Positions 1 to 16,545 of a stretch of DNA of 64,000 nucleotides are shown here, one piece after another. The DNA comes from Candidatus Bathyarchaeota archaeon. GTDB taxonomy: Archaea; Thermoproteota; Bathyarchaeia; Bathyarchaeales; Bathycorpusculaceae. Both the position numbers and the translations under genes were made by a program. The DNA lies in NCBI GenBank assembly GCA_963769845.1, contig CAVYNL010000033.1:1-64000 (forward strand), read 5' to 3'. The notes beneath the pieces are model-generated. The model was given only the letters and a program-made list of their open reading frames with translations. It was not told the DNA's origin and made no database searches. How positions within the stretch are numbered: the first letter of the stretch is position 1; the number at the start of each line of letters is the position of its first letter.

Positions 1-926
1 ATGTTCTATCCGAAAATAGGGTTACACTTTGTCTTTGAGGTATATTTCTGCTGGAGTTAAATAGTTTAGCCCTTCATGGGGCCTCGTGTAGTTGTAGTAG
101 CGTATGAAGCTCCAGTGCTGATTGAAAAGGTGCGACTCGACCTTGTACGCTTTGTGAAATGCTTCTATTTTGCCTATGGTTGTGGGCCTGCGTACGCTGG
201 CAGTGATGTGTTCAATTCCCAGTTCCTGGCAGTGCATGGCGAATTCCGATGTTCCTCCTCGGGCAGGCTTGAACTGTGTTCCCTGATCAGTAAGCACTTG
301 TTCGGGAACACCATACCGCTTAACGGCTTTCTCAAGCAGCTGCAAGGCGTTTTCTCCGGTTGGACTCCATATCTTAACCGAGCCAGTGATGAATCGTGAA
401 TGGTCATCTTGGAAACTGATCATCCAATTGTCGTCGCTGCAGAGCTTGAAATCAGCTTGCCAGAGGCTGTTGCAGTGTTCTCTTTGGAAACGCTTCGTTC
501 CCCAAGTCTTTCTGGGCTCGGTTATCGGATGGTTCAGGCCAGCTTTGCAGATTACGTCATAGACTTTGTGGTGGTCAACGGTGAACCCTCTATGTTCGAG
601 GTAACCTGCTATCTTGTTTGGTCCCCAATCGTATCTCTTCCTTAATTTGATGACTTTCTTTTTCAGAGACCCGTCAATCCCAGGTCCGCATGGACGACCC
701 CTCGGCTTTTCTTCAAGTCCCTTCCAACCTTCAGCCTGATACCGATTCCACCAATAATAGAACATTTTCCGGCTGATACGAGACTGAACACATATCGCAG
801 TGATAGGCTGCCCTTCCAACCTCTCCCTAATAATCCATCGTTTCAGCTTGTCCGAATCTCTATCCAAACCACGACACTCTCTTCTTCCGAGATAGAGAGT
901 GTAACCCATTTATTGGATAAAACTTC
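1..926 (-). mobile_element. IS481-family-like insertion sequence. The left end may extend slightly beyond the window start. One transposase ORF lies between imperfect terminal inverted repeats.
   Basis: Positions 1-25 (ATGTTCTATCCGAAAATAGGGTTAC) match the reverse complement of 901-926 (GAAGTTTTATCCAATAAATGGGTTAC). Both end in GGGTTAC and share a TATCC core. They bracket a DDE/rve transposase gene. Confidence 0.5.
22..909 (-). CDS. DDE transposase (integrase core domain with an N-terminal HTH), IS481-like
   Basis: 295 aa. The N-terminal HTH region reads ...QPITAICVQSRISRKMFYYWWNRY, followed by an rve-type catalytic core containing QADFK...DD...E. Domain order matches single-ORF IS481/ISNCY-type transposases. 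Confidence 0.8.
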   Translation of the reverse strand: MGYTLYLGRRECRGLDRDSDKLKRWIIRERLEGQPITAICVQSRISRKMFYYWWNRYQAEGWKGLEEKPRGRPCGPGIDGSLKKKVIKLRKRYDWGPNKIAGYLEHRGFTVDHHKVYDVICKAGLNHPITEPRKTWGTKRFQREHCNSLWQADFKLCSDDNWMISFQDDHSRFITGSVKIWSPTGENALQLLEKAVKRYGVPEQVLTDQGTQFKPARGGTSEFAMHCQELGIEHITASVRRPTTIGKIEAFHKAYKVESHLFNQHWSFIRYYNYTRPHEGLNYLTPAEIYLKDKV

Positions 927-1005
927 ACCCCCAAACCCAAACACGTAAAAGTACCCAAGGTCTGCCTAAGTACTTTATGGAAGAACCTTCATACAAGGCG
1001 CGCTA

Positions 1006-1275
1006 GTGTGCCAAATCTTGGTTAGAAAGAGAGGGGATGAAATGGAAAAAGAGACTAAGGAGGCTCAAGTGAAATTCTTCGAGGATTTGGAAAATGTAGC
1101 ACATGAAAAACTCATGAAACTGCCTGAAGATGTAGCATTCTTGTTTTTTCAAAAGCTTTTGGAATTAGTGATGAGCGGCGAACGTGAGAGGTCTTGGCAA
1201 CTGTTCTTTGACTGGCTTGCTAACAAAAAGACTGCAGAAGGCATCGTCTCGGAACTTGAAGCTCAAGACGAGTAA
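1006..1275 (+). CDS. hypothetical small acidic protein (likely start at the internal Met, MEKETKEAQ)
   Basis: ORF only. Acidic composition with no recognisable motif. It lies between the IS right end and an IS-end-like solo fragment at 1432-1444. Confidence 0.3.
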   Translation: MCQILVRKRGDEMEKETKEAQVKFFEDLENVAHEKLMKLPEDVAFLFFQKLLELVMSGERERSWQLFFDWLANKKTAEGIVSELEAQDE

Positions 1276-1546
1276 GTGTGTGCGGGTAAAGTCTTGTTCC
1301 AAAACCCAAAACGCGCGCTTGGTGGAATAAAGAGCATGAATATCACCTGTGCTTGAAGCGAAAGAAAGCCGAAAAAGAGTCTTTCGCCGAAACAGTCCTT
1401 CTCTTCAGAAAATTGTTGGTCGGTTGGGACAAAGTTTTATCCAAACCAAACCAACGTTATCAGTCTTAAATACCCCAGAATCAGTTATGGACAATTTGCG
1501 AGAAATGGAAGACGGGTGATGTCTCTTACCAAAGAAGAACCGAATC

Positions 1547-2278
1547 ATGAGGCAGTGGGACGAAGCAGCAGAGTCTTGGGCTGACTTCGTGAGGCAGGGT
1601 AAGGATTATTACAGAGATGAACTTAACAACCCTGCGGCTTTCAGACTTGTGGGAAATGTGAAAGGTCGACTCGCGCTGGACTTGGCCTGCGGTGAGGGAT
1701 ACAACGCTCGAATACTGGCTAGAAAAGGTGCCAAGGTGACTGGGGCAGATTTCTCGACGAAATTGATAGAACATGCGAGAACTGAGGAGGTCAAAGAGAA
1801 GTTAGGCATAGATTATCATGTTATGGATGCTGCTGACCTGTCGAGGTTTCCAAGTAATCACTTCGACCTTGTGACTTGTTTTATGGCCTTGCAAGACATC
1901 AAGAACTACAGGAGAACGGTGTCTGAAGTGGCAAGGGTTCTGAAAAGCAAAAGTCGGTTTGTGTTTTCAATTCCTCATCCCTGTTTCGAAATGGTAGTTG
2001 ACAAAGGAAACAGAATAAGCACAACTACGAGATATTTCGGAGCTGCTGAGGACCACATTCATTGGAAAATGGAGAGACTCCTGAAACCATTCGAGACTAC
2101 AAGCTTCCACAGGACATTAACCGACTATTTCAAAGTGCTCTATAAGAACAGACTTCTCGTAAGAAGGCTCGTGGAGCCACAACCGACGAAGCAAGGAATT
2201 CAGAAGCATCCACCTCTTATAGAAGTTCTTCTCAGACCACAATCAGTAGTAATAGAAGCAGTAAAAGAGCCAATCTGA
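1547..2278 (+). CDS. class I SAM-dependent methyltransferase
   Basis: Motif I reads LDLACGEGYNARILARKGAKVTGADFS (GxGxG-type SAM-binding fold). 243 aa, typical of Methyltransf_11/25 family proteins. Confidence 0.8.
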   Translation: MRQWDEAAESWADFVRQGKDYYRDELNNPAAFRLVGNVKGRLALDLACGEGYNARILARKGAKVTGADFSTKLIEHARTEEVKEKLGIDYHVMDAADLSRFPSNHFDLVTCFMALQDIKNYRRTVSEVARVLKSKSRFVFSIPHPCFEMVVDKGNRISTTTRYFGAAEDHIHWKMERLLKPFETTSFHRTLTDYFKVLYKNRLLVRRLVEPQPTKQGIQKHPPLIEVLLRPQSVVIEAVKEPI

Positions 2279-2280
2279 GC

Positions 2281-2290
2281 AGCGCGCGCT
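2281..2290. repeat. AGCGCGCGCT palindromic decamer, located 3 nt after the methyltransferase stop codon
   Basis: Exact match read from the sequence. Confidence 0.9.
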
Positions 2291-2454
2291 AACACCAAAG
2301 CCGCGAGCATTTTCGTAGACTACGTCCACTCTTGTAAGTTCAGGAGGAATCATTTCGGTTCGACGCATATTCCACCACTGAGCTAACCATCCATGAGGAC
2401 TTCACGTGAAAGTTTTTTATCTCAAGTGTACGTAATGCTCAAGCAGTGAGTCTA

Positions 2455-2619
2455 ATGGCTAAATGCCCCAAGTGTAAGAAGGAAATCAGCAAACCCGAGA
2501 AGACTTGGAAGATGGCTGGTAGAAAAGACAAGAACGGCAAAAGAACCGAACTCACAATAGGCCTCTACAAATGCTGCGGGAAGACTTTCAGGTCCGTATT
2601 GAACAAACGCAAGATCTAG
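2455..2619 (+). CDS. zinc-ribbon miniprotein (54 aa), missed by the ORF-track length cutoff
   Basis: My own translation: MAKCPKCKKEISKPEKTWKMAGRKDKNGKRTELTIGLYKCCGKTFRSVLNKRKI. Two Cys pairs (CPKC ... CCGK) with a basic composition. It lies on the strand opposite a low-complexity 60-aa track ORF. Confidence 0.5.
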   Translation: MAKCPKCKKEISKPEKTWKMAGRKDKNGKRTELTIGLYKCCGKTFRSVLNKRKI

Positions 2620-2959
2620 ACCAAGCAAAATCAACTTCCCAACTTTTTTCTATCCAAAAACCAGCGTACTGCATGTGACCCCCAACTTCTCTCGCTCTAA
2701 TGAAATGGAACGTTTGGTTATGAAGAAAACAAGCCTTGACAGGGCTTTGGAGCACATCACGTCCCGTGTTGAAAAAGAGGAGAGCGTTGCTCTAGGGATG
2801 CATCCGTGCCAGCGCGCGGTAAACTTCGATCTGCGCCGCAATCTTCAGCTTTTCGTTCTTTATCTTCATGTTTTTTCACCTCAAACAATCCATAACGGCT
2901 TTGACACTTTAAACATCGACGCACGTAATGCGAACACAAGAAAACCTCACAAATTGTTA

Positions 2960-3230
2960 CTATACCTGGCACCTGCGCACACGCGCGCGTTTGGACTGAG
3001 CACAGGCTCTGGTACTTCGGCCTGACACCCGCAGACGAACCCGCAGTACAGTAGATACCCGATCCCATTCATGGCGACGGAGTCTGCATCACGGCGCTGG
3101 GGATTCCGGCATTCCACAGGTCCAAAGGGAAGAACGCGCGCTTCGCCCCCTCCGCCAGTTCTTCCCCGCCGCCTCCTGCTCCTCCACAATACGCATAGCA
3201 GGCGAGTGATCGATTGGGCATCTATCTCAG
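2960..3230 (+). ncRNA. possible structured non-coding RNA. A weak SRP-RNA helix-8-like motif is present (CAGGTCC-AAAG-GGAAGAAC).
   Basis: A GC-rich segment of about 270 nt contains no convincing ORF; the track ORFs here are short, overlapping and low-complexity. The palindromes at 2981-2990 (ACGCGCGCGT) and 3134-3142 could pair. The segment CAGGTCCAAAGGGAAGAACG resembles the universal SRP RNA motif CAGGUCCGGAAGGAAGCAGC. Identity is uncertain. Confidence 0.15.
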
Positions 3231-3297
3231 GAAGCCATTATGATGGAGACCGATAAGAAAATTAGGACCTTCACGGACTAGTCGGCAGGGAAGAACC

Positions 3298-4110
3298 ATG
3301 CTAGATAAGCTTGAGAAGGTCTTTGCAGTTTTGATCTGCGCGTCTTTCGTCGTTCTAGCCGTTCCTGTTGGGGCAACCGAGTACAATCCAGGCGTCCAAG
3401 TCGGGTATTGGGTCGAATACAGGAATCTTATTTCAGGCGGGACCGGCAACCCTGAGGATTTCAACGCCACAGAATGGATGAAGATGGAAGTCATACTTGT
3501 CACTGGAAACAGAGTCACTGTTCATACGTCTCGGATGCTCATGAACGGCACTTTCCAAGACGGCTCAGACTATGTGTTTGATGTTGCAACGCGAGAAACA
3601 GACCGTTCAGGAGACTCGAGCAACCTGTGGAACAATTATCTTGTGGTTGCAGGTAATCTGGCAGAAGGCAGCGATACGCACCTGCTAGTGGCGCTTCCTG
3701 AAGGTTCGGCTGCAATGTTTATCAACAAGACCGAAACGAAAGGCCTGCTCGGCATGAACAGGACGGTCAACCTAATCGACTGCAACGAGTCGTTTAACGC
3801 CATTCCCGACTACGACTTTGAATTTCACCTTGTGTACGATCAGGCAACGGGCATGATGCTGGAACTGAATTATTCACTGACATCACATAGTATCCCCAGC
3901 ACCAATGAAGTGGTCTCGTATTCCGCTGCGGAAATCAACACGACGCCGAAGTCGTCTGACAACACGCTGACTTACGCGGAAGTGACAATCGCAGCTGTCA
4001 TCATCGTGGTCATTGCAGCTGCACTTGTAGTTAGACGAAGAAGAAAAGCACATGCCGCGGGGTCTGTGAAGAAAGTTGCGAAAGAGAAAGCCAAAAAAAT
4101 AGCGCGCTAG
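3298..4110 (+). CDS. secreted, C-terminally membrane-anchored glycoprotein (hypothetical surface protein)
   Basis: N-terminal signal peptide (MLDKLEKVFAVLICASFVVLAVPVGA). Many N-x-S/T sequons. C-terminal TM segment followed by a basic tail (IAAVIIVVIAAALVVRRRRK). Confidence 0.55.
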   Translation: MLDKLEKVFAVLICASFVVLAVPVGATEYNPGVQVGYWVEYRNLISGGTGNPEDFNATEWMKMEVILVTGNRVTVHTSRMLMNGTFQDGSDYVFDVATRETDRSGDSSNLWNNYLVVAGNLAEGSDTHLLVALPEGSAAMFINKTETKGLLGMNRTVNLIDCNESFNAIPDYDFEFHLVYDQATGMMLELNYSLTSHSIPSTNEVVSYSAAEINTTPKSSDNTLTYAEVTIAAVIIVVIAAALVVRRRRKAHAAGSVKKVAKEKAKKIAR

Positions 4111-4314: not shown

Positions 4315-6678
4315 TTATGCTGCAAGCTTCTGCTTTATGTTGTTCCTTTTTTCTTCGGGGAGCAGTCCGAACTTCTTGATCCGGTCGGTGAACATCACGA
4401 AGAGTTCCGCGGCTTTCTTGTATACCGGCAGAGGCACGTAGCTGTAGCGTACGCGCATGTTTTCGATTCCGTATTTTGCCAGTTCGCGGCCCATGTCGAT
4501 CATGCGTTTTTTCGAGAATTTTTCGTCGATCTCCTGTGTTCCCTCGATGACTAGAACACCGTCGGCTCCGTATGCGAAGGCATTGAGCATGTGTTTGATG
4601 CCTATGATTGCCGTTGTTGGAACTGTGACTATGCGGATGTTTTCTGGATACTTGGTTCGGTCTAAGCCTAGAAAGTCCATGCCCGTGTAGCCTACGTTCT
4701 TATCTACGAAAGCGACGATTCTGACTTCGCCCGGGTCCTTGTCTGCCAGCACGCCTTTCAAGCTTGCAATGATCTGTTTTGTGGTTGCGTTCTTGAAGTC
4801 TATAGCTTCTTGCGGGCAGACGGGTATACATGCGCCGCAGCCTGTGCACTGGAACGGGTCGATCTTGGCTTTGCCTTCCTGCATCGTTATAGCGTTTCTC
4901 GGACAGATAGACACGCAGGCGCTGCAGCCGTTACACAAATCGCTAATCACGTAAGCTTTTTCTGGGCTGGTAGTGACGTAGTCGCTCTTCAGGAACAGTG
5001 CAGCCTTGGCGGATGCACCTAGGCCATCTGAGACCGTGTCCCGCACGTCTTTGGGGCTTAACCCGCAGCCGCACGCGAAGATGCCTGTGACGAGCGAGTC
5101 CACGGGGTCGAGTTTAGGATGCTTCTCCATGATGAAACCGTCTTCGCCGATGGACACCTTCATTTTTTCGGCGAGCTCGTTCAAGCCGGAGGGCGAAACC
5201 ATCGGCGTTGCCAAGGCGACCATGTCGAATTCGTCCTCGGTCACTTCGCCTGTAATCGTATCTTCGGCCACGGCGACGAGCTTGCCGTTGTTCTTCCTGT
5301 AGACCTCGGCGACTTTTCCACGGATGAACGACACGCCGGCTTCTTGGTCACGCCAGTAGAGATCCTCGTAGCCCTTGCCTGTGGCTCTGATGTCAGTGTA
5401 ATAGATTGTGACGTCGATGCCCAGCATCTTCTTCAAGACGAAGGCCTGTTTGAGCGAGTACATGCAGCAGATTCGGCTGCAGTAGGAGATGTAGTTCTTG
5501 TCTCTTGAGCCTGCGCAAAGGACGATTGCCATGCGCTTGACGTCACTGCCGTCTGCTCGTTTGATGTAGCCGCTCGTCGGGCCCGTTGCGGACACGAAGC
5601 GTTCGAGGTCCATCATCGTGATGACGTCTTTGTACGTGCCGTACCCGTACGTTTCTAGTTTCTTTGCGTCGTAAAGCTCGTATCCGGTGGCCATTATTAT
5701 GCCGCCGACGTGCAGGTCAACAGTGCTTCCCTGGTCTGAGAGGCTGACAGCTTTGGCTGGGCAGAGCTGTTCGCATTTTCCGCATTTGGTGCATGATTTG
5801 AAGTCTATCGTGTAAGCCGAGGGCACAGCCTGTGGAAACTCGATGTACGCGGCTCTTCTCTGCGACCAGCCCTCATTGAACTCGTCGGGAACGGAAACCG
5901 GGCAGACTTTCGCGCATACTCCGCAGCTTCTGCATTTTTGAACGTCAATGCCGCGGGGTTTCATGAACACCTTCACGTCGTAGTTGCCGGGCCTTCCGCT
6001 CACTTCCTGTACCTGTGCGTAAGTGTAGAGCATGACGTTTGGGTTGCGTCCGACCTCAGCCATTCTCGGCGTAAGAATACACTGCGCACAGTCAAGCGTC
6101 GGAAACACCTTCGTCAGTTTGGCCATGTTGCCGCCGATGCTCGGCTTGCGCTCGACAAGATGAACCTTGTAGCCCAAATAGCCAAGTTCAAGGGCTGCGG
6201 TTATACCTGCGATGCCTCCGCCGATGATGAGGATCTCTCTTGAGCCCTTTTCGCTGATGGTCTGTAATGGCTCAAGTTCTCTGCTTCTCTCGTACCCGCC
6301 TTTGATGAGGCTTATGGCCTTCTTCGTGGCCTCAGGCGATGGGTGTGGTCCGAGGATCCATGAGTCTTGTTCCCGGATGTTCACGAACTCAAGCATGAAC
6401 GGGTTCAACCCGGCTCTTTCGAGCACGCTCTGGAACGTGGCTAAATGCATGCGTGGTGTGCAGCTGGCCACGACGACTCTGTCCAAGTTCTCCTTCTTGA
6501 CGGAGTCGAGTATCATTTCCTGAGCCGGCTTGGAGCATAGATACTTGTGATATTTTGCCACGGCGACACCTTCCCAAGTCTTCACAGCGTCGACGACCGC
6601 CTTGACATCAACAACTTCGCCTATGTTGCCGCCGCATTCACACACGAAAATGCCGATTCTAGGCGATTTCTTCTCCAT
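4315..6678 (-). CDS. hdrA: heterodisulfide reductase subunit A (HdrA)-like flavoprotein fused to a C-terminal MvhD (methyl-viologen-reducing hydrogenase delta subunit/FlpD) domain
   Basis: N-terminal Cys cluster (CECGGNIG...). FAD-binding motif GGGIAGITAALELGYLGYKVHLVE. Ferredoxin-type CxxCxxCxxxCP motifs (CRSCGVCAKVCP, CTKCGKCEQLCP, CNGCSACVSICP, CTGCGACIPVCP). The C-terminal part, RIVAFVDKNVGYTGMDFLGLD...GADGVLVIEG, is typical of MvhD. The probable start is the internal Met (MEKKSPRIG). Confidence 0.85.
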   Translation of the reverse strand: MEKKSPRIGIFVCECGGNIGEVVDVKAVVDAVKTWEGVAVAKYHKYLCSKPAQEMILDSVKKENLDRVVVASCTPRMHLATFQSVLERAGLNPFMLEFVNIREQDSWILGPHPSPEATKKAISLIKGGYERSRELEPLQTISEKGSREILIIGGGIAGITAALELGYLGYKVHLVERKPSIGGNMAKLTKVFPTLDCAQCILTPRMAEVGRNPNVMLYTYAQVQEVSGRPGNYDVKVFMKPRGIDVQKCRSCGVCAKVCPVSVPDEFNEGWSQRRAAYIEFPQAVPSAYTIDFKSCTKCGKCEQLCPAKAVSLSDQGSTVDLHVGGIIMATGYELYDAKKLETYGYGTYKDVITMMDLERFVSATGPTSGYIKRADGSDVKRMAIVLCAGSRDKNYISYCSRICCMYSLKQAFVLKKMLGIDVTIYYTDIRATGKGYEDLYWRDQEAGVSFIRGKVAEVYRKNNGKLVAVAEDTITGEVTEDEFDMVALATPMVSPSGLNELAEKMKVSIGEDGFIMEKHPKLDPVDSLVTGIFACGCGLSPKDVRDTVSDGLGASAKAALFLKSDYVTTSPEKAYVISDLCNGCSACVSICPRNAITMQEGKAKIDPFQCTGCGACIPVCPQEAIDFKNATTKQIIASLKGVLADKDPGEVRIVAFVDKNVGYTGMDFLGLDRTKYPENIRIVTVPTTAIIGIKHMLNAFAYGADGVLVIEGTQEIDEKFSKKRMIDMGRELAKYGIENMRVRYSYVPLPVYKKAAELFVMFTDRIKKFGLLPEEKRNNIKQKLAA

Positions 6679-6766
6679 CAGTGAAATCTCCTGTTGAATG
6701 GTTTGATTCAGAAGATTCACGGGAAAACGCTTTAATAACCTTATGCTCCTTTTTCACGTAAAAGTG

Positions 6767-7885
6767 ATGTTTGAGATGAATGCTCAAGAACTCACCCAGA
6801 AGCACAAGCTGCTTGAATGCATCCAGTGCGGAACATGCACCGGGAGCTGTCCAGTTGCACGCAAAGCCAACCTCAACGTCAGGAAGTACATGCGCGAAGT
6901 CGCAACACTGGGCAAGCTGACGCAACATTCGCAGAACGAGCTGTGGAGCTGCACAACCTGCAGCACCTGCGGCGTACGATGTCCGAAGGAGTTGAACCCG
7001 TACGAGTTTCTGATTGACGTTCGCGGTATGGCGGTTGAAGAAGGCCAGATCGCACCGACGATTCGTGATGCTTTGGAGAGCATTTTCAAGAACGGCAATC
7101 CATGGGGAAGGATCCGTAACAAGCGTTCAGAATGGATGCAAGGATTGAACGTGAAGCACATGTCACAAGGCGCAGACATGCTCTACTTTGTTGGTTGCAC
7201 GTCGGCTTATGACCCGCGAATTCAAAACGTGGCAAAAAACGTTGCAGCCGTTTTCGCTAAGGCAGGTTTGAACTTTGGCGTCTTGGGCGATGAGGAGAAC
7301 TGCTGTGGAAGCGAAGTCTACGGAATGGGAGAAAAAGGGCTCTTCGACTTCCTCGTCGAGGAGAACATGAAGGCTTTCAACAAGTACAACGTCAAGCAAG
7401 CGGTGACGAACTGTCCACACGGCTATCACGCGTTTAAGAACAGGTATAACCAGACGAGCTTCGAGGTCCAGCATCACTCGCAGCTGCTGTGCAAGCTCAT
7501 TGACGAAAAGAAGCTAACGTTCTGCAAAGAACTGAACAAGAAGGTCATTTATCATGACCCATGTTTCTTGGGGAAGCAGAACGGCATCTACGACGAGCCA
7601 CGGAAAGTGATCGAAAGCGTGCCAGGCGTGAAACTGCTAGAGTTCGACCGCTCACGGACAAGAAGCGTGTGCTGCGAAGGCGGCGGCGGAAGAATGTGGG
7701 TCGACATCCCAGGACCAAGACTGTCCGAGACACGCGTGAAAGATGCAGTAGAAGCTGGCGCAGACATCCTAGCTACAGCATGTCCTTACTGCCTGTTAAC
7801 ATTTGAAGACGCTGTCAAGACCACGGGAAACGAAGGCAAAATCCAAATCATGGACATAGCCGAACTCCTTGTGCAAGCACTTTAG
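6767..7885 (+). CDS. hdrD: HdrD-like protein: an HdrC-type 2x[4Fe-4S] domain fused to an HdrB-type duplicated CCG (Cys-rich) domain
   Basis: CIQCGTCTGSCP and CTTCSTCGVRCP match HdrC ferredoxin motifs. Two CCG motifs follow (VGCTSAYDP...ENCCGSE and DPCFLGKQ...CCEGGGG), as in HdrB/GlpC/SdhC. The gene is divergent from hdrA-mvhD with an intergenic gap of about 85 nt. Confidence 0.8.
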   Translation: MFEMNAQELTQKHKLLECIQCGTCTGSCPVARKANLNVRKYMREVATLGKLTQHSQNELWSCTTCSTCGVRCPKELNPYEFLIDVRGMAVEEGQIAPTIRDALESIFKNGNPWGRIRNKRSEWMQGLNVKHMSQGADMLYFVGCTSAYDPRIQNVAKNVAAVFAKAGLNFGVLGDEENCCGSEVYGMGEKGLFDFLVEENMKAFNKYNVKQAVTNCPHGYHAFKNRYNQTSFEVQHHSQLLCKLIDEKKLTFCKELNKKVIYHDPCFLGKQNGIYDEPRKVIESVPGVKLLEFDRSRTRSVCCEGGGGRMWVDIPGPRLSETRVKDAVEAGADILATACPYCLLTFEDAVKTTGNEGKIQIMDIAELLVQAL

Positions 7886-8087
7886 TTGATCTTCGCAGCT
7901 TTCCAAGTCCCGTTTGCTTTTCTTGTTTGTGGATCATCGGCTAATTCGACGAGCTACCAGAATCGCAATGCACGCTGTGTCTTTGGGCATAACTGTATTC
8001 GAACGAAAAAGAGGAAGGGGCCTTCTTCCTTGCGACTGATTACAAAAAAAGAAGGGGAAAACGAAGTAAAGATGTTAGCTTTATGAA

Positions 8088-8210
8088 CTAGTATCTTCTC
8101 GGCGGTCTTCGTTTAGAAAAACACTCGTTGCAGTACACAGGTCTGCTGCCGTCTGGTTTGAAGGGAACTTCACATTCCTTGCCACATTCAGCGCAGACCG
8201 CTTTGTGCAT
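8088..8210 (-). CDS. zinc-ribbon miniprotein (40 aa), below the ORF-track cutoff
   Basis: My own reverse-strand translation: MHKAVCAECGKECEVPFKPDGSRPVYCNECFSKRRPPRRY. It has a CxxC-x17-CxxC motif and a basic tail, a pattern typical of widespread small Zn-ribbon proteins. Confidence 0.5.
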   Translation of the reverse strand: MHKAVCAECGKECEVPFKPDGSRPVYCNECFSKRRPPRRY

Positions 8211-8839
8211 CTCTCGATTATACATCTTGCTCTTTCAACTCCTTATGCTATTTAGCGCAAAAAAAGACTTTCTTGCACGGAAGTTGATCCGTCGCCTATG
8301 CTTTAAACCTATCTATTAGGGCGCGCCATAATGTCCAAGACTGGAGGTGTGGCGAGACTGCGTTTTCCTCGTTGCCGAAGACACAGCACTGCATCTTCTG
8401 CGCCGAATCGCCGGAATATTGTAAATACTCCATGCAGAGCGTAGTAGGCTCTTTCCGAGCTGCATATACATTTCGGACACCTCTTCAAAAAACCCAGATT
8501 TGAAGAATCATGATCAGCCAAGGCATGCTTCTCACGTGAGAGATCTCACTCAGGAGAATAGCGTTCTGTTCTCCGGTGCAATTCCTGCCAACTGCGAAGA
8601 TGCTCATGTGGATCTGACCCAAACCGGTCCATATGCTTCTTAAGATCCTCTTCTGAGCAGAAACGGCAAGAACAGAAGCGGCAATCAAGTTTTTGTTCTT
8701 CGCTTTCCACGCGGATCCCTTAAAGGGCAATCTGCTATAACACATTTAAACATTTGTTCATTTTCCAGCACGCGCTATTAAGAAGGTTTAAGAAGTGAGC
8801 CGAGATTCCTCTTGCTTCAGAAAAGGCTGGCAACGAAAC

Positions 8840-9256
8840 ATGAGCACAAATGTAACCACTATCCGACAGAAGACGTTAATCCCGGCTACTCCAAACGAGG
8901 TTTACGAAGCATTCATGGATTCAAAAAAGCATTCTGCCTTCACAGGAAGCAAAGCAAAATGTGATCCGAAGGCAGGAGGAGAATTCACGGCTTGGGACGG
9001 GTACATCTCGGGCAGAAACCTGGAGCTGGAGAAGGGAAAGAAGATAGTGCAAGAATGGTTGACATCTGAGTGGCCAGACGGTTATTCTCCTTCAAGACTG
9101 GAATTGACATTCAGGAAAGTGAAGGACGGCACCGAAATATCCATGGTTCATTCGAACGTGCCAGCAGAGCAGGCAGATGATATTGCAGAAGGATGGACAG
9201 AGTTCTACTGGAAACCGCTCAAAGAATACTTCACGAAACGAAAGCCCAAACAGTAG
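8840..9256 (+). CDS. SRPBCC superfamily protein (AHSA1 / activator of Hsp90 ATPase homolog-like)
   Basis: TIRQKTLIPATPNEVYEAFMDSKKHSAFTGSKAKCDPKAGGEFTAWDGYISG is typical of the AHSA1/SRPBCC fold. The start is taken at the internal Met (MSTNVTT). Confidence 0.7.
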   Translation: MSTNVTTIRQKTLIPATPNEVYEAFMDSKKHSAFTGSKAKCDPKAGGEFTAWDGYISGRNLELEKGKKIVQEWLTSEWPDGYSPSRLELTFRKVKDGTEISMVHSNVPAEQADDIAEGWTEFYWKPLKEYFTKRKPKQ

Positions 9257-9656
9257 ACAATACGCGAAACGAAAAAGAAAAACTGAGATTTTGCAGTTGA
9301 GCTCTCTTCTGGGTGTCCAATACACACGGGCATCATTGGTAAATTCTCGCCAGTCTAAATCACATTAGCAATTGTGGGAATGAGCACTTTATTCTTTCGT
9401 GCCTCACAAAGAACAGTTGCAGAGGAAGAGATTTCATGCTGGGGCAGCAAAAAATGTTGGATGTGAATTTGTATTCGGTGACTCTGTGCTTCTCGGAAGT
9501 GAAACTGGTACGACTGGCACTGTTGGAAAAAGGTTGGCAGCATCAGCTCAGCATGAAGTCTTGACAAGTCGAACCGTGCGGATGGGTCATCTTTCATTAA
9601 TCCTTAAATCTCGGGTTGCTTGTGTTGTTACACTGTGAAGAAGGGGGAAAATTGAG

Positions 9657-11057
9657 ATGGACTTCGACGTAGGAACGATAGCCGCGATTGTAGGCATAGC
9701 ATTCTTGGTTGTAGTTGTTGTTGTCTTCATCATTTCGAGAAGCTACACGGTTGTTAAGCCATCAGAGGCTCACATTGTTGTCAGACGCAAAGGCAGGAAA
9801 GTCTACAGTTCTAGGGAAGGACAGAGATCGGCATATTGGTATATCCCTTATATCATGCAAAGGTCTGTTCTGCCGCTGGAGAACATCAAGCTTGTGATTC
9901 CGAATATTCCCTTGAGAGACATTGACATGGCAAAGTTCGCTGGGGATGTCAGGTGCTGGCTGAACATTGAGAATCCTGACCTTGCAGCAGAGAAGTTGGG
10001 CAAGGTGGAAACTGAGGGAATGACAGGTTTCCCCGCGATACAGGCTGACGTCAAGGACCTGATTGAAGCTGTTGCAAGGAACTCTTCTATGAAGATGGAT
10101 GTCGTCAATATCATGAAGGACAGGGCCAAGTTTAGTCAGACAGTGAAGGATGAAGTGGCTCCAATCCTGAAGACTGAATGGGGAATAAAGATTGCAGGTC
10201 TAGAAGTCATCTACTTCAGAGACATTGAGAACTACACTGTCATCAAGGACATTGAGGCAAGACAGGCAAAACTGATCGAGACAGAGACGAGGAAGCAGTT
10301 GGCAGACTACGAGAAGAACGCAGCAATAGTTGAGGCCATTGCCAATCAGGAGAAAGAAACACAGAGAGCACAGGCAGAAGAGACATACAGGATCAGACAG
10401 ATTCAGAAGGACCAAGCTATAGGGCAAAGCGACCAGCAGAAACAGCAAAACATTGCAATGGCTACTCAAGAGGCTAATAAGCAGACTGTTGAGGCTAACA
10501 GACTCTTGACCGTAGGAAACGCTGAGATTGAGAAGCAGGCCGCCATAACCAGAGCAGATGGTGAAGCTCAATCCAACGTAAAGAGAGGGGATGGGACTGC
10601 TCAGGTGACGAAGCTGACGGGCTTTGCAGAAGCAGATGTCAGCAGGCAGAAACTGTTTGCCGAAGCAGAAGGCACTGAAAAGAAGGCATTGGCGCTCAAA
10701 CAGTACAATGAAGCAGGTCTGTCCTTGGAAGTCATCAGAGCGAATCAAGCCATCAAAGAAGCCCAGTTTGCCGCCCTCAGCGAAGGACTGAAAGTAGCTA
10801 AGATCAACCTTGTGACGAGTGGTGAAAGCAACATTCTGGGCATTCCTGTGAGCGCGGAGATGGGAGCAGACCTTGGAGCCATGCTGATTGCGTTGCAGAA
10901 TATGGGAATAGACATCACCGACCTTCTCAGAAAACTGCCGATAACCGAGACAGCCAAACTTGCCATAGCTGCAAAAGCAGGAATCAGCGTAGCCAAAGAA
11001 GGAACAAAAGAAGCAACCAAAGAAGCCCAACCTAAAGGCAAGAAGGGATCTGAATGA
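9657..11057 (+). CDS. flotillin / SPFH (band 7) domain protein
   Basis: N-terminal TM segment, then an SPFH domain, then a long coiled coil rich in E/A/Q (EAQ-type repeats), followed by a C-terminal region. 466 aa, typical of flotillin/YqiK. Confidence 0.85.
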   Translation: MDFDVGTIAAIVGIAFLVVVVVVFIISRSYTVVKPSEAHIVVRRKGRKVYSSREGQRSAYWYIPYIMQRSVLPLENIKLVIPNIPLRDIDMAKFAGDVRCWLNIENPDLAAEKLGKVETEGMTGFPAIQADVKDLIEAVARNSSMKMDVVNIMKDRAKFSQTVKDEVAPILKTEWGIKIAGLEVIYFRDIENYTVIKDIEARQAKLIETETRKQLADYEKNAAIVEAIANQEKETQRAQAEETYRIRQIQKDQAIGQSDQQKQQNIAMATQEANKQTVEANRLLTVGNAEIEKQAAITRADGEAQSNVKRGDGTAQVTKLTGFAEADVSRQKLFAEAEGTEKKALALKQYNEAGLSLEVIRANQAIKEAQFAALSEGLKVAKINLVTSGESNILGIPVSAEMGADLGAMLIALQNMGIDITDLLRKLPITETAKLAIAAKAGISVAKEGTKEATKEAQPKGKKGSE

Positions 11058-11320
11058 CTCAGATAGAACTCGACAAGCTCAGTCCAAGAGCTAAAGAACT
11101 ACTGGAAATCTTTGCAAAGACGAGCGGCGTGGCAGATCTCTCAATGGTCATTCAAGATGAAACCTTCAGCATCTTTGAACTCATGAAACTGATCGATACC
11201 ACAAGAGATCCAAAGATCTATCCACAGGACTCAGTACTTGTCTTCAACACGGTGAAAGCTGTGCTCGCGAAATTTAGCAGATTTGGGCAGCCGACAAAAT
11301 TGACAGAACAAGAGCCCTAA
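11054..11320 (+). CDS. hypothetical 88-aa protein translationally coupled to flotillin (ATGA overlap)
   Basis: Its start overlaps the flotillin stop codon. No recognisable motif. Confidence 0.45.
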   Translation: MTQIELDKLSPRAKELLEIFAKTSGVADLSMVIQDETFSIFELMKLIDTTRDPKIYPQDSVLVFNTVKAVLAKFSRFGQPTKLTEQEP

Positions 11321-11346
11321 CAATCTTCTCTTTTTTTGCGCGCGCT
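11321..11346 (+). terminator. T-tract (CTCTTTTTTTG) immediately after the stop codon, followed by a GCGCGCGCT palindrome
   Basis: Archaeal termination occurs at oligo-T tracts. A T7 run lies 10 nt past the TAA codon. Confidence 0.3.
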
Positions 11347-11535
11347 ATCAGCGTCCAATATGGGTTTGTTTGATGGCTAAATCTTGGTCGTGTTGAGAGA
11401 TGGTGAATCACGGGAGCTCCGCCTGATGGCCGGCGCGAAAAATGGTTGTGCACCTCAAAACCGCCCCAAAACCCCAAAAAAGAAATAAAAACCACTTTTG
11501 ACCATCTTAGGAACACGCATGCGCGCTATAATAGC

Positions 11536-11883
11536 ATGGTGACTTCAATGATCACGTATGAGGATTTCAGAAGAGTTGACATGCGAGTAGGCAGAATCTT
11601 AGAAGTGGAGCGTTTCCCAGAGGCAAGAAAGCCTTCCTACAAGCTGAAGATAGATTTCGGTCCACAGATAGGTGTAAAGAATTCCAGTGCCCAGATCGCA
11701 GGGTACAGGAAGGACGAACTAATAGGGAGATTAGTCATAGCCGTTGTCAATTTTCCTCCTAAACAAGTGGCCAACTTTCAGTCTGAAGTCTTGACTCTAG
11801 GAGTGGCAGATAAATCTAAGAAGAATAACTGGTTCTTGATAGAGCCTGACAGGGACGTAGATTTGGGTACCAGAGTAGAATGA
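11536..11883 (+). CDS. csaA: tRNA-binding protein CsaA/Trbp111 (EMAP/MetRS C-terminal-like OB fold)
   Basis: ITYEDFRRVDMRVGRILEVERFPEARKPSYKLKIDFGPQIGVKNSSAQI...RLVIAVVNFPPKQVANFQSEVLTLG is a classical tRNA_bind domain. Confidence 0.75.
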   Translation: MVTSMITYEDFRRVDMRVGRILEVERFPEARKPSYKLKIDFGPQIGVKNSSAQIAGYRKDELIGRLVIAVVNFPPKQVANFQSEVLTLGVADKSKKNNWFLIEPDRDVDLGTRVE

Positions 11884-12167
11884 CAGAAACCTTTCCGACG
11901 CACCCACGCCCAGAATCCCAAATGAGACCACGATCGAGCAAACGACCTTCGTTTCTTTCCTCAAAAATCAGGTTTGCGGGAGACGTCGCCACGCGAGTTC
12001 GCCCCAATCCCGAACCTGTGAATGCGTGCGTCCAAGGGTTCAAACGTGAGCTTTGACCTGTCGATCCCAGACAGTATCATGATCTGAGCAATCTCCGGTT
12101 TTTTAGGAGTATAGACGTCGCAGCACTAGCGACAAGAAATCCGAGAAATAAACAATATAAGACACAT

Positions 12168-12779
12168 ATGAGGCTTTCTTACGAATGCGCACATGGTTCA
12201 TTTGTCTCTTACAAAAGGGGATGGCGTCAACTGACGATAATTGTTGATGATGCTGGCATAGGTGATCTACTTTTTGGCGTCGTCATAGGCGCCTTTCGCT
12301 CCGAGACTCAGGAATTTAGATACGATATCGTAGATGTCGGATATTTCAGATATCCGCGATTCCGATCAAAAGAGTATCTGAAGCAGACTTCGAAAATTGT
12401 GTTTCAACTATTGAATAAACTTGAACTCAAGAAAGACGAACAAATTCAAATCTGCAAAGGCTACATCTTCGACGAAGCGGTAAACAGTTTGAAAGAGAGG
12501 TATGGCGACAATCAAATTGACAGAATCACAGTCACTGGAGAACCGCAGAGGCTTACAGAAATTGCATATCTCGACGAGATCAGAAACTTGGGGTATGAGC
12601 CAGTAAAAGACAGAGATGAGAAAAAGGCAAAGAGCTTCTTCCACATGATGAACTGGCTAAAGAAAAATCCAGAGAAACTGATCTATGCAAAGACTGGTTG
12701 GCCACGCCTGCAGAGATATGATCTATTCAGATCCTACTGTCAAAAACGATCAACAGAAGACAGAGAAATCAGTTCTTGA
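12168..12779 (+). CDS. hypothetical protein (203 aa). The N-terminal segment LTIIVDDAGIGDLLFGVVIGAF resembles an RNase H-like/YqgF-type glycine-rich beta-strand motif.
   Basis: ORF plus weak motif resemblance only. Confidence 0.35.
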   Translation: MRLSYECAHGSFVSYKRGWRQLTIIVDDAGIGDLLFGVVIGAFRSETQEFRYDIVDVGYFRYPRFRSKEYLKQTSKIVFQLLNKLELKKDEQIQICKGYIFDEAVNSLKERYGDNQIDRITVTGEPQRLTEIAYLDEIRNLGYEPVKDRDEKKAKSFFHMMNWLKKNPEKLIYAKTGWPRLQRYDLFRSYCQKRSTEDREISS

Positions 12780-12977
12780 ATCTGTATAGTGCACAATGGC
12801 ATTATACAATTAGCAAAAAGAGCTTGCCGAAGACATCTCTTTCGATGTGCTCGTGTAATGCATTACAGTCTGAGAGCGCGCGAGAGATTTCGCCGCCTGA
12901 TGGGGGCTCGGATCCCACTTTGCCCACCAAAAGCCTTGGATAGCATGTGCTGAGGTTGTGTCTGGCTTGATTGTCGT

Positions 12978-14225
12978 TCAAGTATTGTGAGACTTGATCT
13001 CGAGAAATCTGAATGTAGATTCGCAGGTAATGGCTTTCTTGGTTCTCCGATTTTCCTCCAGTCCCATTCTCATTCCCAGCACCCAGACTCCGATTCTTTT
13101 CTCTGACAAGGATTCTCGAGGAAAACTGATCAGACCCTCTTCGTTCTTGAATCGAGTCAACGTTTCCACAGATCGACTGTACCAGATGTGGTTTCTTGCC
13201 ACATTTGATCTGCCAAAGAGACCAAGCAGCAGAAGCAGCCTTCCAAACTCCATGCCTGAAAACTCGGACCCAAAGTATCCAGGCAAGTGGACGCTCCACC
13301 CCATCATGTAGTATCGTCCCGGCCCATGGCGGACTACTCCATATCCAACTCGAAGCTTCTGGTATTCTGAAGTCAGGATGAATTTGATGATGGTTTCAAC
13401 CTTGGCTCTGAGCGTTGCATCTTCCATTATGGATGGCGAGTGCAAGAAGGCATTCACGTCGTGTATCCAAGGCAGCTTCATCTCTTCATGAGGATAGATC
13501 TCAGGGTTCACCAGTGGAGCATTCCTGAAGGCCTTGGGAAAACCAGGGAACTTGTCTTGAGGAACATATACTCCTTTCAGATCGCCTTTCCTCGCAAACG
13601 GATAGATGGTTTCCAGCCGTCTGAGAACCCATGCCTTGACAGACTCATCATCCGCATATCCGGTCATGGTCAAAAAAGCGGAGACCAACGTGCGAAAGAA
13701 TACTGGGAGATACCCTTCCGCGGGGACGCTGATCTGTTGGTGCAACCATCGGAGAAACGGTTCAGTCTTGCGGTCCAAGATGGACATTCCTTTCCTCAGA
13801 CCAAACTCATACAGTTTTCCCATGACGTTCTCGTATGTTTCTGTTTTGGCACCATGCAACGCATTCCTTCCGCAATCTGGTCTCAGATTTCCCAGCCAAT
13901 ATCTCACAAGGTTACTTGACAAGAGATCCCTTTTTGCAGATTCAACCCCCTTCTTTTCATGAAGAAACTCCGTAGCAGTACGAAATCTAATAACCGAACC
14001 TGCATTGTCTACGAGCCAATCTGAATAATCTGTGAACTCCGCATCCCACACCAACCCAATCTGTGAACATTGTCCGAACTTAAGATTTTTGGCACGTATC
14101 AAAATCGGTTCCACAGTGACAAAACGGTCTTTGACGATAAAACAAGCAAACAAAAATGGGGGGTCGCGAGAGACATCGTCAATTGTCACGTTTCCAAGTG
14201 CCGGCGAGCCTGTCACGTGGCTCAA
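12978..14225 (-). CDS. hypothetical protein (415 aa), no recognisable family
   Basis: Long ORF with non-repetitive, non-low-complexity composition. It is convergent with 12168-12779. Confidence 0.5.
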   Translation of the reverse strand: MSHVTGSPALGNVTIDDVSRDPPFLFACFIVKDRFVTVEPILIRAKNLKFGQCSQIGLVWDAEFTDYSDWLVDNAGSVIRFRTATEFLHEKKGVESAKRDLLSSNLVRYWLGNLRPDCGRNALHGAKTETYENVMGKLYEFGLRKGMSILDRKTEPFLRWLHQQISVPAEGYLPVFFRTLVSAFLTMTGYADDESVKAWVLRRLETIYPFARKGDLKGVYVPQDKFPGFPKAFRNAPLVNPEIYPHEEMKLPWIHDVNAFLHSPSIMEDATLRAKVETIIKFILTSEYQKLRVGYGVVRHGPGRYYMMGWSVHLPGYFGSEFSGMEFGRLLLLLGLFGRSNVARNHIWYSRSVETLTRFKNEEGLISFPRESLSEKRIGVWVLGMRMGLEENRRTKKAITCESTFRFLEIKSHNT

Positions 14226-14340
14226 CTACTTATGACCTCTACTCTGGAGTCTTAGCGTGGTCTATTTGCAGAGGGAGCTGATGTGATTGGTCTCCGATAA
14301 CGGTTCAAATGGAGAAAACAGGGTTACGATTGCGTTAGGT

Positions 14341-14940
14341 TCATGTGCTTCTTGCGCTGATGTTTCTTCTATTCTTTGTTTTGAGGAGTTCAAGGGCTGC
14401 CGTCTTCGCTCCGAGTTCTGCCTTGATTTCTTCGTCTGCACTTCCGATTATTACGACGTCGCCGTCTTTCAGGTTCAGTTTTGACAGAGCGGCAAGGAGG
14501 GGGAAATCACCTTTTGACACGTTTTCCCCTATGCCCGGCATAGACAGCCCGTTCTTGGTAAAGATCAAAGTCGTGGCTCCTCTTGCTCCTGCCATTATTG
14601 CAGCGTCTCTCTGTTCCAGACCGTATTTCACTGAGTCCTTCATTCCTGCCACTCGGACTGCAACGTTGAAGGACCCGACCGTCAAGGACGTGGACGAAAT
14701 CTCTACTTGTTCGCTGAGGAGAGCTCTCAGACTACCAAGCAGTTTTCTTCCCGTTGCGGAGAGGGAAATCCCTGATTTTGAAACGTCGATCAGCCCTTCG
14801 TTCTTCAAATGCTTAACGAGAGTCCTGGCCTCGCCTTCACCCAACTGGAGGTCTTTTGAGAGTTTCATCCTGCCTACGGTCTGTTGGAGATTGATTTCTT
14901 CCAAAGCCTTGATCACGTGAGCCTCAGCGAACGAGGGCAA
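14341..14940 (-). CDS. winged-helix transcriptional regulator with a C-terminal uncharacterised domain (DUF4443-like)
   Basis: N-terminal wHTH (VIKALEEINLQQTVGRMKLSKDLQLGEGEARTLVKHLKNEGLIDV). The fully overlapping plus-strand ORF is S/P/A-rich low complexity and is rejected. Confidence 0.5.
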   Translation of the reverse strand: MPSFAEAHVIKALEEINLQQTVGRMKLSKDLQLGEGEARTLVKHLKNEGLIDVSKSGISLSATGRKLLGSLRALLSEQVEISSTSLTVGSFNVAVRVAGMKDSVKYGLEQRDAAIMAGARGATTLIFTKNGLSMPGIGENVSKGDFPLLAALSKLNLKDGDVVIIGSADEEIKAELGAKTAALELLKTKNRRNISARST

Positions 14941-16340: not shown

Positions 16341-16545
16341 AAAGTGTGGTTGGATAGTCCATCCATATAAGCCTTTCTCACCACGGATACTGTAAACTCA
16401 TCTGTCATGACTTTTCCAGCTTACAGAATGTTAGTGGTGCATTTGTCAGTTTTGTTTTCTAATTGTGCCTTGGTTTTTCCCTTTGCTTCAGAATACGCAG
16501 AAAACCTGATTCAGATGTTGTCTTTATGGGTTCTTTGATTATTCC

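Follow-up and report, generated by a model that had tools for sequence, protein, structure and literature searches.

A divergent hdrA and HdrD-like gene pair conserved in Bathyarchaeia as the possible core of a soluble NAD(P)H-linked electron-bifurcating complex

What do heterodisulfide reductase (Hdr) proteins do in archaea that do not produce methane? Genes for Hdr are found widely and are well conserved in Bathyarchaeia, Korarchaeia, and Asgard lineages, and their substrate in these groups is an acknowledged puzzle (PMC7886697, PMC10667645); in nonmethanogenic Bathy-6 archaea, the disulfide has been acknowledged as unknown (PMC7886697). Metabolic reconstructions usually depict the Hdr proteins of nonmethanogens as reductases of the coenzyme M-coenzyme B heterodisulfide (CoM-S-S-CoB). 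The question is posed in a compact form by a divergent gene pair within a 64,000-nucleotide (nt) stretch of a Candidatus Bathyarchaeota genome (GenBank assembly GCA_963769845.1, contig CAVYNL010000033.1, positions 1 to 64,000; here, the window). One gene encodes HdrA fused to a Cys-less MvhD-like domain (positions 4315 to 6678, minus strand), and the other encodes a soluble HdrD-like protein of the BamD/EtfD type (6776 to 7885, plus strand). We scanned the window for open reading frames (ORFs), compared the encoded proteins with Pfam and NCBIfam, and scanned one genome per species for related loci, which recovered 40 loci, all from Bathyarchaeia, 39 of them containing the upstream DNA. We regard it as an evenly balanced proposition that the pair, together with an Nfn/MvhD module encoded downstream and a protein partner such as electron transfer flavoprotein (ETF), forms a bifurcating or confurcating complex and not a heterodisulfide reductase. 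For ETF specifically as that partner, we put the chance at less than even.

The hdrA ORF spans positions 4315 to 6720 on the minus strand and encodes 801 amino acids (aa) counted from a GTG codon. Its start is most probably the ATG at 6678, because orthologues align from this Met and a Shine-Dalgarno (SD)-like GGAGAT lies 8 to 13 nt upstream (6686 to 6691, minus strand); the resulting 787 aa agree with the length of about 790 aa given in the initial annotation. The HdrD-like ORF (6743 to 7885, plus strand) encodes 380 aa at full length and most probably starts at 6776 (369 aa), or else at 6767, because homologues are mostly 369 to 372 aa long; the ATG at 6743 falls within the best-conserved block of the spacer between the two genes. 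In the HdrD-like protein, Pfam recognized an HdrC-type domain for two [4Fe-4S] clusters (Fer4_8) followed by two CCG domains, and the FlpD/MvhD profile (PF02662) matched the C terminus of HdrA, which confirms the domain architectures first assigned to both proteins. No transmembrane (TM) segment was predicted in the HdrD-like protein, which is thus predicted to be soluble. Genes for hydrogenase, formate dehydrogenase, FrhB, and HdrE were absent among the ORFs scanned across the window, as the initial annotation had stated for hydrogenase and formate dehydrogenase. A cytochrome b/NarI-type gene (HdrE) was found neither in the window nor as a recurrent gene in the 40 related loci, and no hdrE- or mvhAG-type family recurred in their flanks. 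The association of a soluble HdrA with a fused HdrC- and HdrB-type protein lacking HdrE is real and conserved. Neither protein reaches the cutoff of its best NCBIfam family: HdrA is closest to HdrA2 (NF040770) at 831 bits, below the cutoff of 1,100, and the best NCBIfam match of the HdrD-like protein is the C-terminal part of TfrB at 184 bits, under the cutoff of 385.

Is this HdrA equipped for electron bifurcation? Its residues 4 to 646 align to solved HdrA subunits at 560 to 637 bits (599 to 637 bits for chains 5odc_A and 8rvu_a, with the highest score for 8rvu_a over residues 4 to 645). This region comprises a thioredoxin reductase (TrxR)-like FAD domain and Cys ligands for six [4Fe-4S] clusters, distributed over the N-terminal, TrxR, inserted, and C-terminal ferredoxin domains. 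The 28 core Cys positions are kept in 34 to 36 of 36 sequences, as are the Cys sets of the six [4Fe-4S] clusters and the C197/C200 pair. Also kept are the equivalents of E356 and K409 (M. thermolithotrophicus numbering), which align to 5odc_A within LELER/MDLER and CCMYAMK/CCMYSLK, respectively, and are flavin-site residues regarded as hallmarks of bifurcation (PMC12054007). As judged from its sequence, this HdrA carries a bifurcating FAD and six [4Fe-4S] clusters and is predicted to be bifurcation competent.

The C-terminal MvhD-like domain has a different character. The PF02662 match is complete (residues 654 to 771, 73 bits, profile positions 1 to 123 of 123), and the last 140 aa of HdrA contain no Cys, an absence shared by 30 of 35 related sequences. 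Alignment to three Cys-complete MvhD domains encoded in the window shows the four ligand positions in HdrA occupied by V/D, T, a deletion, and T/Q, and therefore a [2Fe-2S] cluster cannot be bound there. For Methanosarcina acetivorans HdrA2, an Fe2S2 cluster within its MvhD domain was predicted from sequence motifs, consistent with iron analysis (PMC5296606), and the Cys-less fusion is thus a degenerate variant of this arrangement.

The second question is whether the HdrD-like protein could reduce a disulfide, as the initial annotation had supposed. In Hdr, the last Cys of each CxxC (C81 and C234) bridges the catalytic iron (PMC13083937), and proteins of the catalytic type carry two complete CX31-39CCX35-36CXXC motifs. 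In addition to two cubane-cluster motifs, the window protein has one such complete motif, the second (CCG2; C263, C299, C300, C336, and C339). The first (CCG1) reads C141-X34-C176C177-X35-C213-P-H215-G216, with Gly at the position of the bridging Cys, so that the HdrB-type ligands are all present in CCG2 and incomplete in CCG1. All of these residues (C141, C176, C177, C213, H215, G216, C263, C299, C300, C336, and C339) are invariant in 41 orthologues. In mycobacterial EtfD, the first CCG site holds a linear [3Fe-4S] cluster; at the second is a noncubane [4Fe-4S] cluster that is rendered noncatalytic by His583, the residue that completes its coordination (PMC13083937). The equivalent of this His583 is the invariant H215. 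The HdrD-like architecture thus stands, with its HdrC and two CCG domains, but the protein has BamD/EtfD-type residues and is not a canonical HdrD, since it departs from the catalytic Hdr pattern at defined residues.

Comparisons with solved structures lead in the same direction. A sequence search of the PDB returned Mycobacterium smegmatis EtfD (9ojn) as the best match at 193 bits, whereas the N-terminal part matched HdrC at about 69 bits and the CCG part matched HdrB at about 33 bits. A structure model of the protein, built from 27 input sequences and without cofactors (predicted local distance difference test score of 73.6, higher in most of the CCG domains), again retrieved EtfD 9ojn first in Foldseek (E value 6e-22, TMq 0.66), followed by LutA and HdrB chains (E values of about 1e-8). 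A scan of 1.84 billion representative sequences yielded 11,029 relatives of the HdrD-like protein, of which we examined the nearest 150. CCG2 was complete in 147 of these, and His occupied the H215 column in all 139 that were covered by the 12 commonest residue triads. The CCG1 types among the 150 included C-CC-SPHC (38 proteins), C-CC-CPHC (33), the EtfD-type C-CT-CPHC (19), and the window type, C-CC-CPHG (18); 15 of these last 18 have five TM segments and are of the EtfD/HdrF kind. The clusters of ten representatives consist of metagenome proteins named "Fe-S oxidoreductase."

A soluble precedent is provided by BamD of the class II benzoyl-CoA reductase, an HdrBC-like fusion that, in the cryo-electron microscopy structure described in a 2026 preprint, is located on the high-potential branch of the HdrA-type bifurcating protein BamE (bioRxiv 10.64898/2026.04.10.717634). 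According to the same preprint, His230, Trp325, and Tyr356 fill the heterodisulfide site of BamD, most homologues show degeneration of its distal noncubane cluster, and cryo-electron tomography places ETF docked on BamD as the high-potential acceptor. H215, W308, and Y338 of the window protein share alignment columns with H, W, and [YF] at positions 230, 325, and 356 of relatives of 385 to 392 aa. H215 and W308 are invariant in the 41 orthologues, and position 338 is Tyr in 27 and Phe in 14, while HdrB has N/G and S in the H215 and W308 columns. All marks of the BamD/EtfD type are therefore present and invariant in the HdrD-like protein, namely, the HdrC-like domain, the CCG pattern, the His, and the Trp after CCxGGG. 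These features suggest that the protein is more probably an electron relay to a protein such as ETF than a disulfide reductase.

We weighed these observations against the model of the initial annotation, in which the pair would be a cytoplasmic bifurcating disulfide reductase, an analogue of HdrA2B2C2 with fused HdrB and HdrC. In that model, an unknown low-molecular-weight or protein disulfide (thioredoxin-like or DsrC-like) would be reduced by NAD(P)H delivered through Nfn, with coreduction of ferredoxin. In the DsrK/DsrC system, protein disulfides or trisulfides are the substrates, which provides a precedent. The model also draws support from the complete CCG2 and the CC pair retained in CCG1, from TfrB, a thiol-oxidizing CCG protein, as the best NCBIfam match, from the proximity of HdrA to HdrA2, and from a bona fide thioredoxin reductase gene that follows the HdrD-like gene in most relatives. 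However, an invariant Gly takes the place of the first cluster's bridging Cys, and His215, Trp308, and Tyr/Phe338 match residues described as filling or capping the site in EtfD and BamD. The HdrD-like protein is weakly similar to HdrB (33 bits, against 193 bits for EtfD), and both NCBIfam matches remain under their curated cutoffs. In addition, the thioredoxin reductase has its own NADPH motif and no need of Hdr, and no candidate thiol-carrier gene is conserved in the cluster across the 40 related loci. A disulfide-reducing role was therefore not borne out, and we consider it unlikely.

The shared organization of the two genes bears on whether their products act together. Homologues of the HdrD-like protein at 77 to 98% identity came from Bathyarchaeia and Bathycorpusculaceae metagenome-assembled genomes (MAGs), SPRUCE and MFD samples contain close relatives, and a comparative survey found hdrA divergently adjoining the HdrD-like gene in all 39 related loci with upstream DNA, at identities of 77 to 95% for HdrA and 69 to 94% for the HdrD-like protein. 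The arrangement is therefore not due to chance. The spacer between the two ATG codons (6679 to 6775) measures 97 nt, slightly longer than the 85 nt or so of the initial annotation, which had called it a bidirectional promoter; it is indeed divergent and conserved, and its length is 97 to 101 nt in 36 related loci. The only stretch with more than 90% conservation across 39 sequences is a central block of 29 nt, GGGAAAACGCTTTAATAACCTTATGCTCC (6721 to 6749), and the flanks of this block vary. Inside it lies a near-symmetric TATA-like element, TTTAATAA (6731 to 6738), 41 nt from the ATG of the HdrD-like gene and 56 nt from that of hdrA, and an SD-like AAAAGTGATG of the HdrD-like gene is found within the spacer at 6760 to 6769. 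It is a reasonable inference from this layout that the spacer is a compact archaeal promoter region with a TATA element and transcription factor B recognition element (BRE) common to both genes. The near-symmetric TATA-like element might serve both genes or bind a regulator.

Alternatively, the two genes could be mere neighbors with unrelated functions and a spacer without regulatory meaning. This would leave the divergent arrangement in 39 of 39 loci, the fixed spacer of 97 to 101 nt, and the highly conserved block to coincidence. HdrA-type and HdrBC- or HdrD-type proteins form complexes in every characterized case, and the HdrD-like genes of sister clusters also adjoin HdrA genes. We therefore consider unrelated functions exceedingly improbable.

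If HdrA and the HdrD-like protein form a functional core, which partner exchanges midpotential electrons with it? The initial annotation described the pair as stand-alone and pointed to an Nfn-like locus at 17 to 21 kb. Four plus-strand genes lie there. The first, trxR (17272 to 18204), encodes a thioredoxin reductase (TIGR01292, 348.9 bits; cutoff, 343.45) with a CGIC redox motif and an HRRETFR NADPH motif, whose best PDB match is M. mazei TrxR (4zn0, 256 bits). The second (18302 to 19513) encodes a 403-aa protein in which a unit of a ferredoxin domain for two [4Fe-4S] clusters plus an MvhD domain occurs twice in tandem (PF02662 twice, plus Fer4); this protein is similar to the C terminus of HdrA2, and across 26 sequences there is no variation in its 16 ferredoxin Cys or in the four MvhD Cys of either domain. 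The third gene (19506 to 20345) encodes an NfnA-type FAD/[2Fe-2S] NAD-binding subunit (PRK06222, 371 bits; cutoff, 220; Pfam DHODB_Fe-S_bind), and the fourth (20332 to 21747) encodes an NfnB/GltD-type flavoprotein with sites for two [4Fe-4S] clusters and NADPH (TIGR01316, 619 bits; cutoff, 472; Fer4_20 and Pyr_redox_2). The double-MvhD gene overlaps nfnA by 8 nt, and nfnA overlaps nfnB by 14 nt. By predicted subunit makeup and gene adjacency, the last two form an NfnAB-type pair, and the tandem ferredoxin-MvhD protein is a candidate adaptor between Nfn and HdrA.

In the window, the HdrD-like gene is separated from trxR by 9.4 kb (7886 to 17271) filled with unrelated, nonconserved genes (AHSA1, SPFH, tRNA-binding, DUF4443, and ECF-type genes), and the label "stand-alone" thus describes the local arrangement in this genome correctly. 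It does not extend to the relatives, in which the Nfn-type genes come directly after the pair: in 31 loci, counterparts of the genes at 17272 to 21747 follow the HdrD-like gene on its own strand, and the distance from its stop codon to the trxR start is 57 to 315 nt in nine loci and up to 5,540 nt in others. Among the 31 relatives with at least 6 kb of flanking sequence, the trxR/double-MvhD/nfnAB unit adjoins the pair in 27, and this synteny therefore supports the Nfn locus as the partner, as do NfnB modules located inside the HdrA proteins of sister clusters. The interval from 7886 to 17271 corresponds to a variable insertion zone, with different genes in each of the 31 related genomes.

Another possibility is that the pair is self-sufficient. 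F420H2 or NAD(P)H would then react directly at the HdrA flavin, as proposed for HdrA2B2C2, the Cys-less MvhD would be a structural remnant, and the trxR-mvhD2-nfnAB and etf units would be unrelated and nearby by descent. HdrA2 has been reported to oxidize F420H2 directly (PMC5296606; discussed in PMC12054007). In favor of this possibility, the pair is the sole universal unit (39 of 39 loci), whereas 4 of 31 loci lack the Nfn unit within 10 kb and 8 of 24 lack the ETF unit; variable genes lie between the units, and the loss of the MvhD cluster argues against an external wire for electron input. On the other hand, a protein with two intact MvhD domains is translationally coupled to nfnAB beside the pair, and, to our knowledge, the only known role of MvhD domains is that of adaptors to HdrA-type proteins. 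In sister clusters, the HdrA proteins carry physically inserted NfnB modules, and the Nfn and etf units stay close to the pair while other flanking genes vary. Taken together, a self-sufficient pair appears quite improbable.

The etf unit emerged when all flanking ORFs of the 40 loci were clustered into families. Besides the six genes described so far, the only recurrent families were etfB, etfA, an acyl-CoA dehydrogenase (acd), and a 3-hydroxyacyl-CoA dehydrogenase (hbd), all confirmed by Pfam. The etfB-etfA-acd-hbd genes lie 1.0 to 6.0 kb downstream of hdrA on the hdrA strand in 16 of the 24 loci with at least 6 kb of flank. In one related locus (L003), this block occupies positions 867 to 3848, and equivalents occur in 16 further loci. 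The Bathyarchaeia EtfB is closest to nonbifurcating ETF, and EtfA is closest to bifurcating ones.

The same combination of genes recurs in bacteria. In Syntrophorhabdaceae and related MAGs (44% identity), the HdrD-like gene directly precedes etfB-etfA, with neighboring genes overlapping or 1 nt apart. These are followed by genes for a 900-aa HdrA with an NfnB-like insert, a further HdrA, and an MvhD, and two acyl-CoA dehydrogenase genes lie upstream. The Anaerolineales homologue (50% identity) is encoded between two HdrA genes, and an HdrA-NfnB fusion, MvhD, CoA transferases, and an acyl-CoA dehydrogenase are encoded nearby. The HdrA-NfnB fusions of these sister clusters are HdrL proteins of 900 to 1,518 aa (L042, 11836 to 14547; L044, 9502 to 12204; L046, 1368 to 5924; L048, 1286 to 4348), in which the NfnB-like module, 44 to 46% identical to the NfnB of the window, is inserted inside the TrxR domain of HdrA. 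Such fusions are therefore Rosetta-stone evidence that NfnB-type and HdrA-type modules work together in the sister systems. The Syntrophorhabdaceae HdrL genes share one gene run with the soluble HdrD-like gene and etfBA. The sister family (P0126) was considered as BamD itself and rejected, as its neighbors are etfBA and HdrL and no BamBC-type genes are present.

How might these components work together? We propose that HdrA and the HdrD-like protein would form the core of a soluble flavin-based electron-bifurcating or -confurcating complex. The HdrD-like protein would sit on the high-potential branch of HdrA, as BamD does on BamE, and pass electrons one at a time through its four clusters, two of them cubane and two bound by CCG motifs, to another protein, in all likelihood ETF acting with acyl-CoA dehydrogenases. 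NAD(P)H, processed by the NfnAB-type flavoproteins, would be the midpotential partner, and ferredoxin would be the low-potential one. Because of the synteny, the gene overlap, and the domain fusions in sister systems, we infer that the tandem ferredoxin-MvhD protein wires NfnAB to HdrA, supplying the [2Fe-2S] relay lost from the fused MvhD domain. The complex could run in either direction. In the forward direction, NAD(P)H would drive the reduction of ferredoxin and of ETF/enoyl-CoA; in reverse, reduced ferredoxin and ETF electrons from acyl-CoA oxidation would be confurcated to reduce NAD(P)+, allowing β-oxidation without a quinone.

Several observations weigh against this proposal. ETF and acyl-CoA dehydrogenase genes are absent from the window, and in relatives, the ETF genes lie 1 to 6 kb from hdrA past unrelated genes and are absent in a third of the loci. 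The HdrD-like gene and trxR are separated by variable and sometimes opposite-strand genes and hence do not belong to a single obligate operon; common descent alone could account for some of the synteny. The NfnAB proteins, which score above curated cutoffs, could act alone as a transhydrogenase, with TrxR as a mere consumer of NADPH. If the Cys-less MvhD fills the docking site on HdrA, a cluster-bearing MvhD lacks an obvious site. The comparison with BamD comes from a preprint, and the residue equivalence was derived via homologue numbering and not from the BamD sequence. Lastly, with four Cys, the Hdr-type CC pair included, kept in CCG1 and with a complete CCG2, the protein could still carry out thiol/disulfide chemistry, and the best NCBIfam match, although below its cutoff, is to a thiol-oxidizing protein.

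Which known systems come closest to the proposed complex? It shares with BamDEF of the Geobacter metallireducens Bam(BC)2DEFGHI complex (bioRxiv 10.64898/2026.04.10.717634) an HdrA-type bifurcating flavoprotein and a soluble HdrB and HdrC fusion with a His/Trp/Tyr triad (predicted here to fill the pocket), a degenerate distal CCG, and an intact proximal one. Further parallels, on the model proposed here, are an MvhD-type adaptor leading to an NAD(P)H flavoprotein module of a bifurcating family and ETF as the high-potential partner. The proposed complex would thereby resemble benzoyl-CoA reductase, for which two bifurcation modules coupled in series have been described. The differences are considerable. 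The BamBC tungsten reductase has no counterpart here, and the low-potential output would therefore be free ferredoxin. The NAD(P)H module is of the NfnAB type and not the HydBC-type BamGHI, the adaptor is the tandem ferredoxin-MvhD protein and not BamF, and a single HdrA with a fused Cys-less MvhD replaces the fused HdrA dimer. The last Cys of CCG1 is Gly, whereas a Cys-to-Ser replacement has been reported for BamD, and the genes are archaeal and divergently arranged. In sequence and fold, the closest solved relative is mycobacterial EtfD (the Rv0338c homologue; 9ojn, PMC13083937), to which ETF:menaquinone oxidoreductase (EMO)/HdrF-type proteins are related. EtfD is proven to relay electrons in connection with ETF and is no disulfide reductase. 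Both proteins have two cubane and two CCG cluster sites, a His after the first C-P motif (which caps the second CCG cluster in EtfD), and a Trp after CCxGGG. Unlike EtfD, the window protein has no membrane/heme domain and no quinone site, and its partner is HdrA and not the quinone pool; it keeps the CC pair (CT in EtfD) and lacks C584, which precludes a linear [3Fe-4S] cluster with the ligation seen in EtfD.

HdrA2B2C2 of M. acetivorans, with its type Ia HdrA (PMC5296606, PMC12054007), likewise has an HdrA-MvhD fusion with end-to-end similarity to the window protein (NF040770), is soluble and without a hydrogenase partner, and shares the bifurcation to ferredoxin proposed here. The window system differs in that its fused MvhD lacks the [2Fe-2S] Cys, its HdrA scores below the family cutoff, and its HdrB and HdrC are fused with an incomplete first CCG motif; moreover, the organism is not a methanogen, and CoM-S-S-CoB is therefore unlikely as the substrate. 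HdrL or type III HdrA proteins (with inserted GltD/NfnB) and the FlxABCD-HdrABC systems of sulfate reducers and syntrophs (PMC2702500, PMC12054007) resemble it in coupling, as proposed for the window system, an NAD(P)H flavoprotein to HdrA through MvhD, in having a soluble HdrD without HdrE, and in serving nonmethanogens. In the window, however, NfnA and NfnB are separate canonical subunits that are not inserted in HdrA, and the acceptor subunit is of the BamD/EtfD type and not HdrBC. With MvhADG-HdrABC of hydrogenotrophic methanogens (PDB 5ODC), the common ground is the HdrA core (about 600 to 637 bits), with its FAD, six [4Fe-4S] clusters, and K409/E356; the window system has no hydrogenase and no cluster in its fused MvhD, and its fused HdrB and HdrC are not of the catalytic type.

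The initial annotation had called the pairing atypical, but it is less so than supposed. HdrA-MvhD fusions ("type Ia") are common (PMC12054007, PMC5296606), and a soluble HdrD without HdrE beside HdrA was described in Desulfobacterium autotrophicum in 2009 (PMC2702500) and also in anaerobic methanotrophic archaea (ANME; PMC9012536) and in Chloroflexi (PMC5736913). The pairing in itself was thus known before. In a Bathy-6 paper, an "MvhD/hdrA" gene is listed beside "MvhB" but is not discussed (PMC11697101). What we did not meet in the literature searched is the six-gene arrangement across Bathyarchaeia, a Cys-less MvhD fusion with a tandem MvhD protein as its complement, a soluble protein with the C-CC-CPHG variant of CCG, and an association with ETF and acyl-CoA dehydrogenase that recurs in three phyla.

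The window contains a second Hdr-type locus (25447 to 32147, minus strand). One of its genes (30723 to 32147, minus strand) encodes 474 aa in which a GltD/NfnB-like flavoprotein is fused to an HdrC-like dicluster domain. Next is a gene for an HdrA-MvhD paralogue whose MvhD is Cys complete, and after it come genes for a PorD-like ferredoxin and for a 2-oxoacid:ferredoxin oxidoreductase (alpha, beta, and gamma subunits). This locus could be another NAD(P)H- and ferredoxin-linked HdrA system, one without HdrB. Its HdrA-MvhD gene (28284 to 30796, minus strand) is split into two ORFs by two same-sign frameshifts, with breaks near 29970 to 30095, and an intact reading (which includes CSACGECAKVCPI) is recoverable in a third frame. 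The gene may be either a pseudogene or the product of an assembly indel error; selenocysteine read-through was rejected, since the ORFs are in different frames and two frameshifts would be needed. The hdrA gene is likewise split in two of the related loci (L008 and L011).

Elsewhere in the window, an rve-family transposase gene (22 to 909, minus strand) occupies the left edge. A 270-aa ORF (3298 to 4110, plus strand) is convergent with hdrA and conserved only in the closest relative (L002); like three further long ORFs, of 1,042 aa (58839 to 61967, plus strand), 456 aa (43520 to 44890, minus strand), and 415 aa (12978 to 14225, minus strand), it has no Pfam match. Scans of the whole 64 kb detected no tRNA genes and no Rfam families.

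What would the pair mean for archaea of this kind? It offers a testable answer to the role of "Hdr" in archaea that make no methane, as the locus provides sequence-level grounds for regarding "HdrD" as a relay to an ETF-like protein and names the likely NAD(P)H module. If this reading is true, the HdrA-BamD-ETF principle, so far seen only in the bacterial benzoyl-CoA reductase, would reach archaea and a simpler, easier-to-study complex. Neither quinones nor hydrogenases would be needed to couple the oxidation or reduction of acyl-CoA to ferredoxin and NAD(P)H, and models of energy conservation would change for one of the most abundant groups of sediment archaea. More tentatively, and as a speculation that we think has the balance of probability against it, Bathyarchaeia and some Syntrophorhabdaceae and Anaerolineales may share a soluble supercomplex in which NfnB and HdrA act in series via MvhD and a BamD/EtfD-like subunit connects to ETF, confurcating electrons from acyl-CoA (via ETF) and from ferredoxin onto NAD(P)+. 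Such a supercomplex, if true, would permit quinone-independent β-oxidation and amino acid fermentation and would explain the strong conservation of "Hdr" genes in archaea without methanogenesis.

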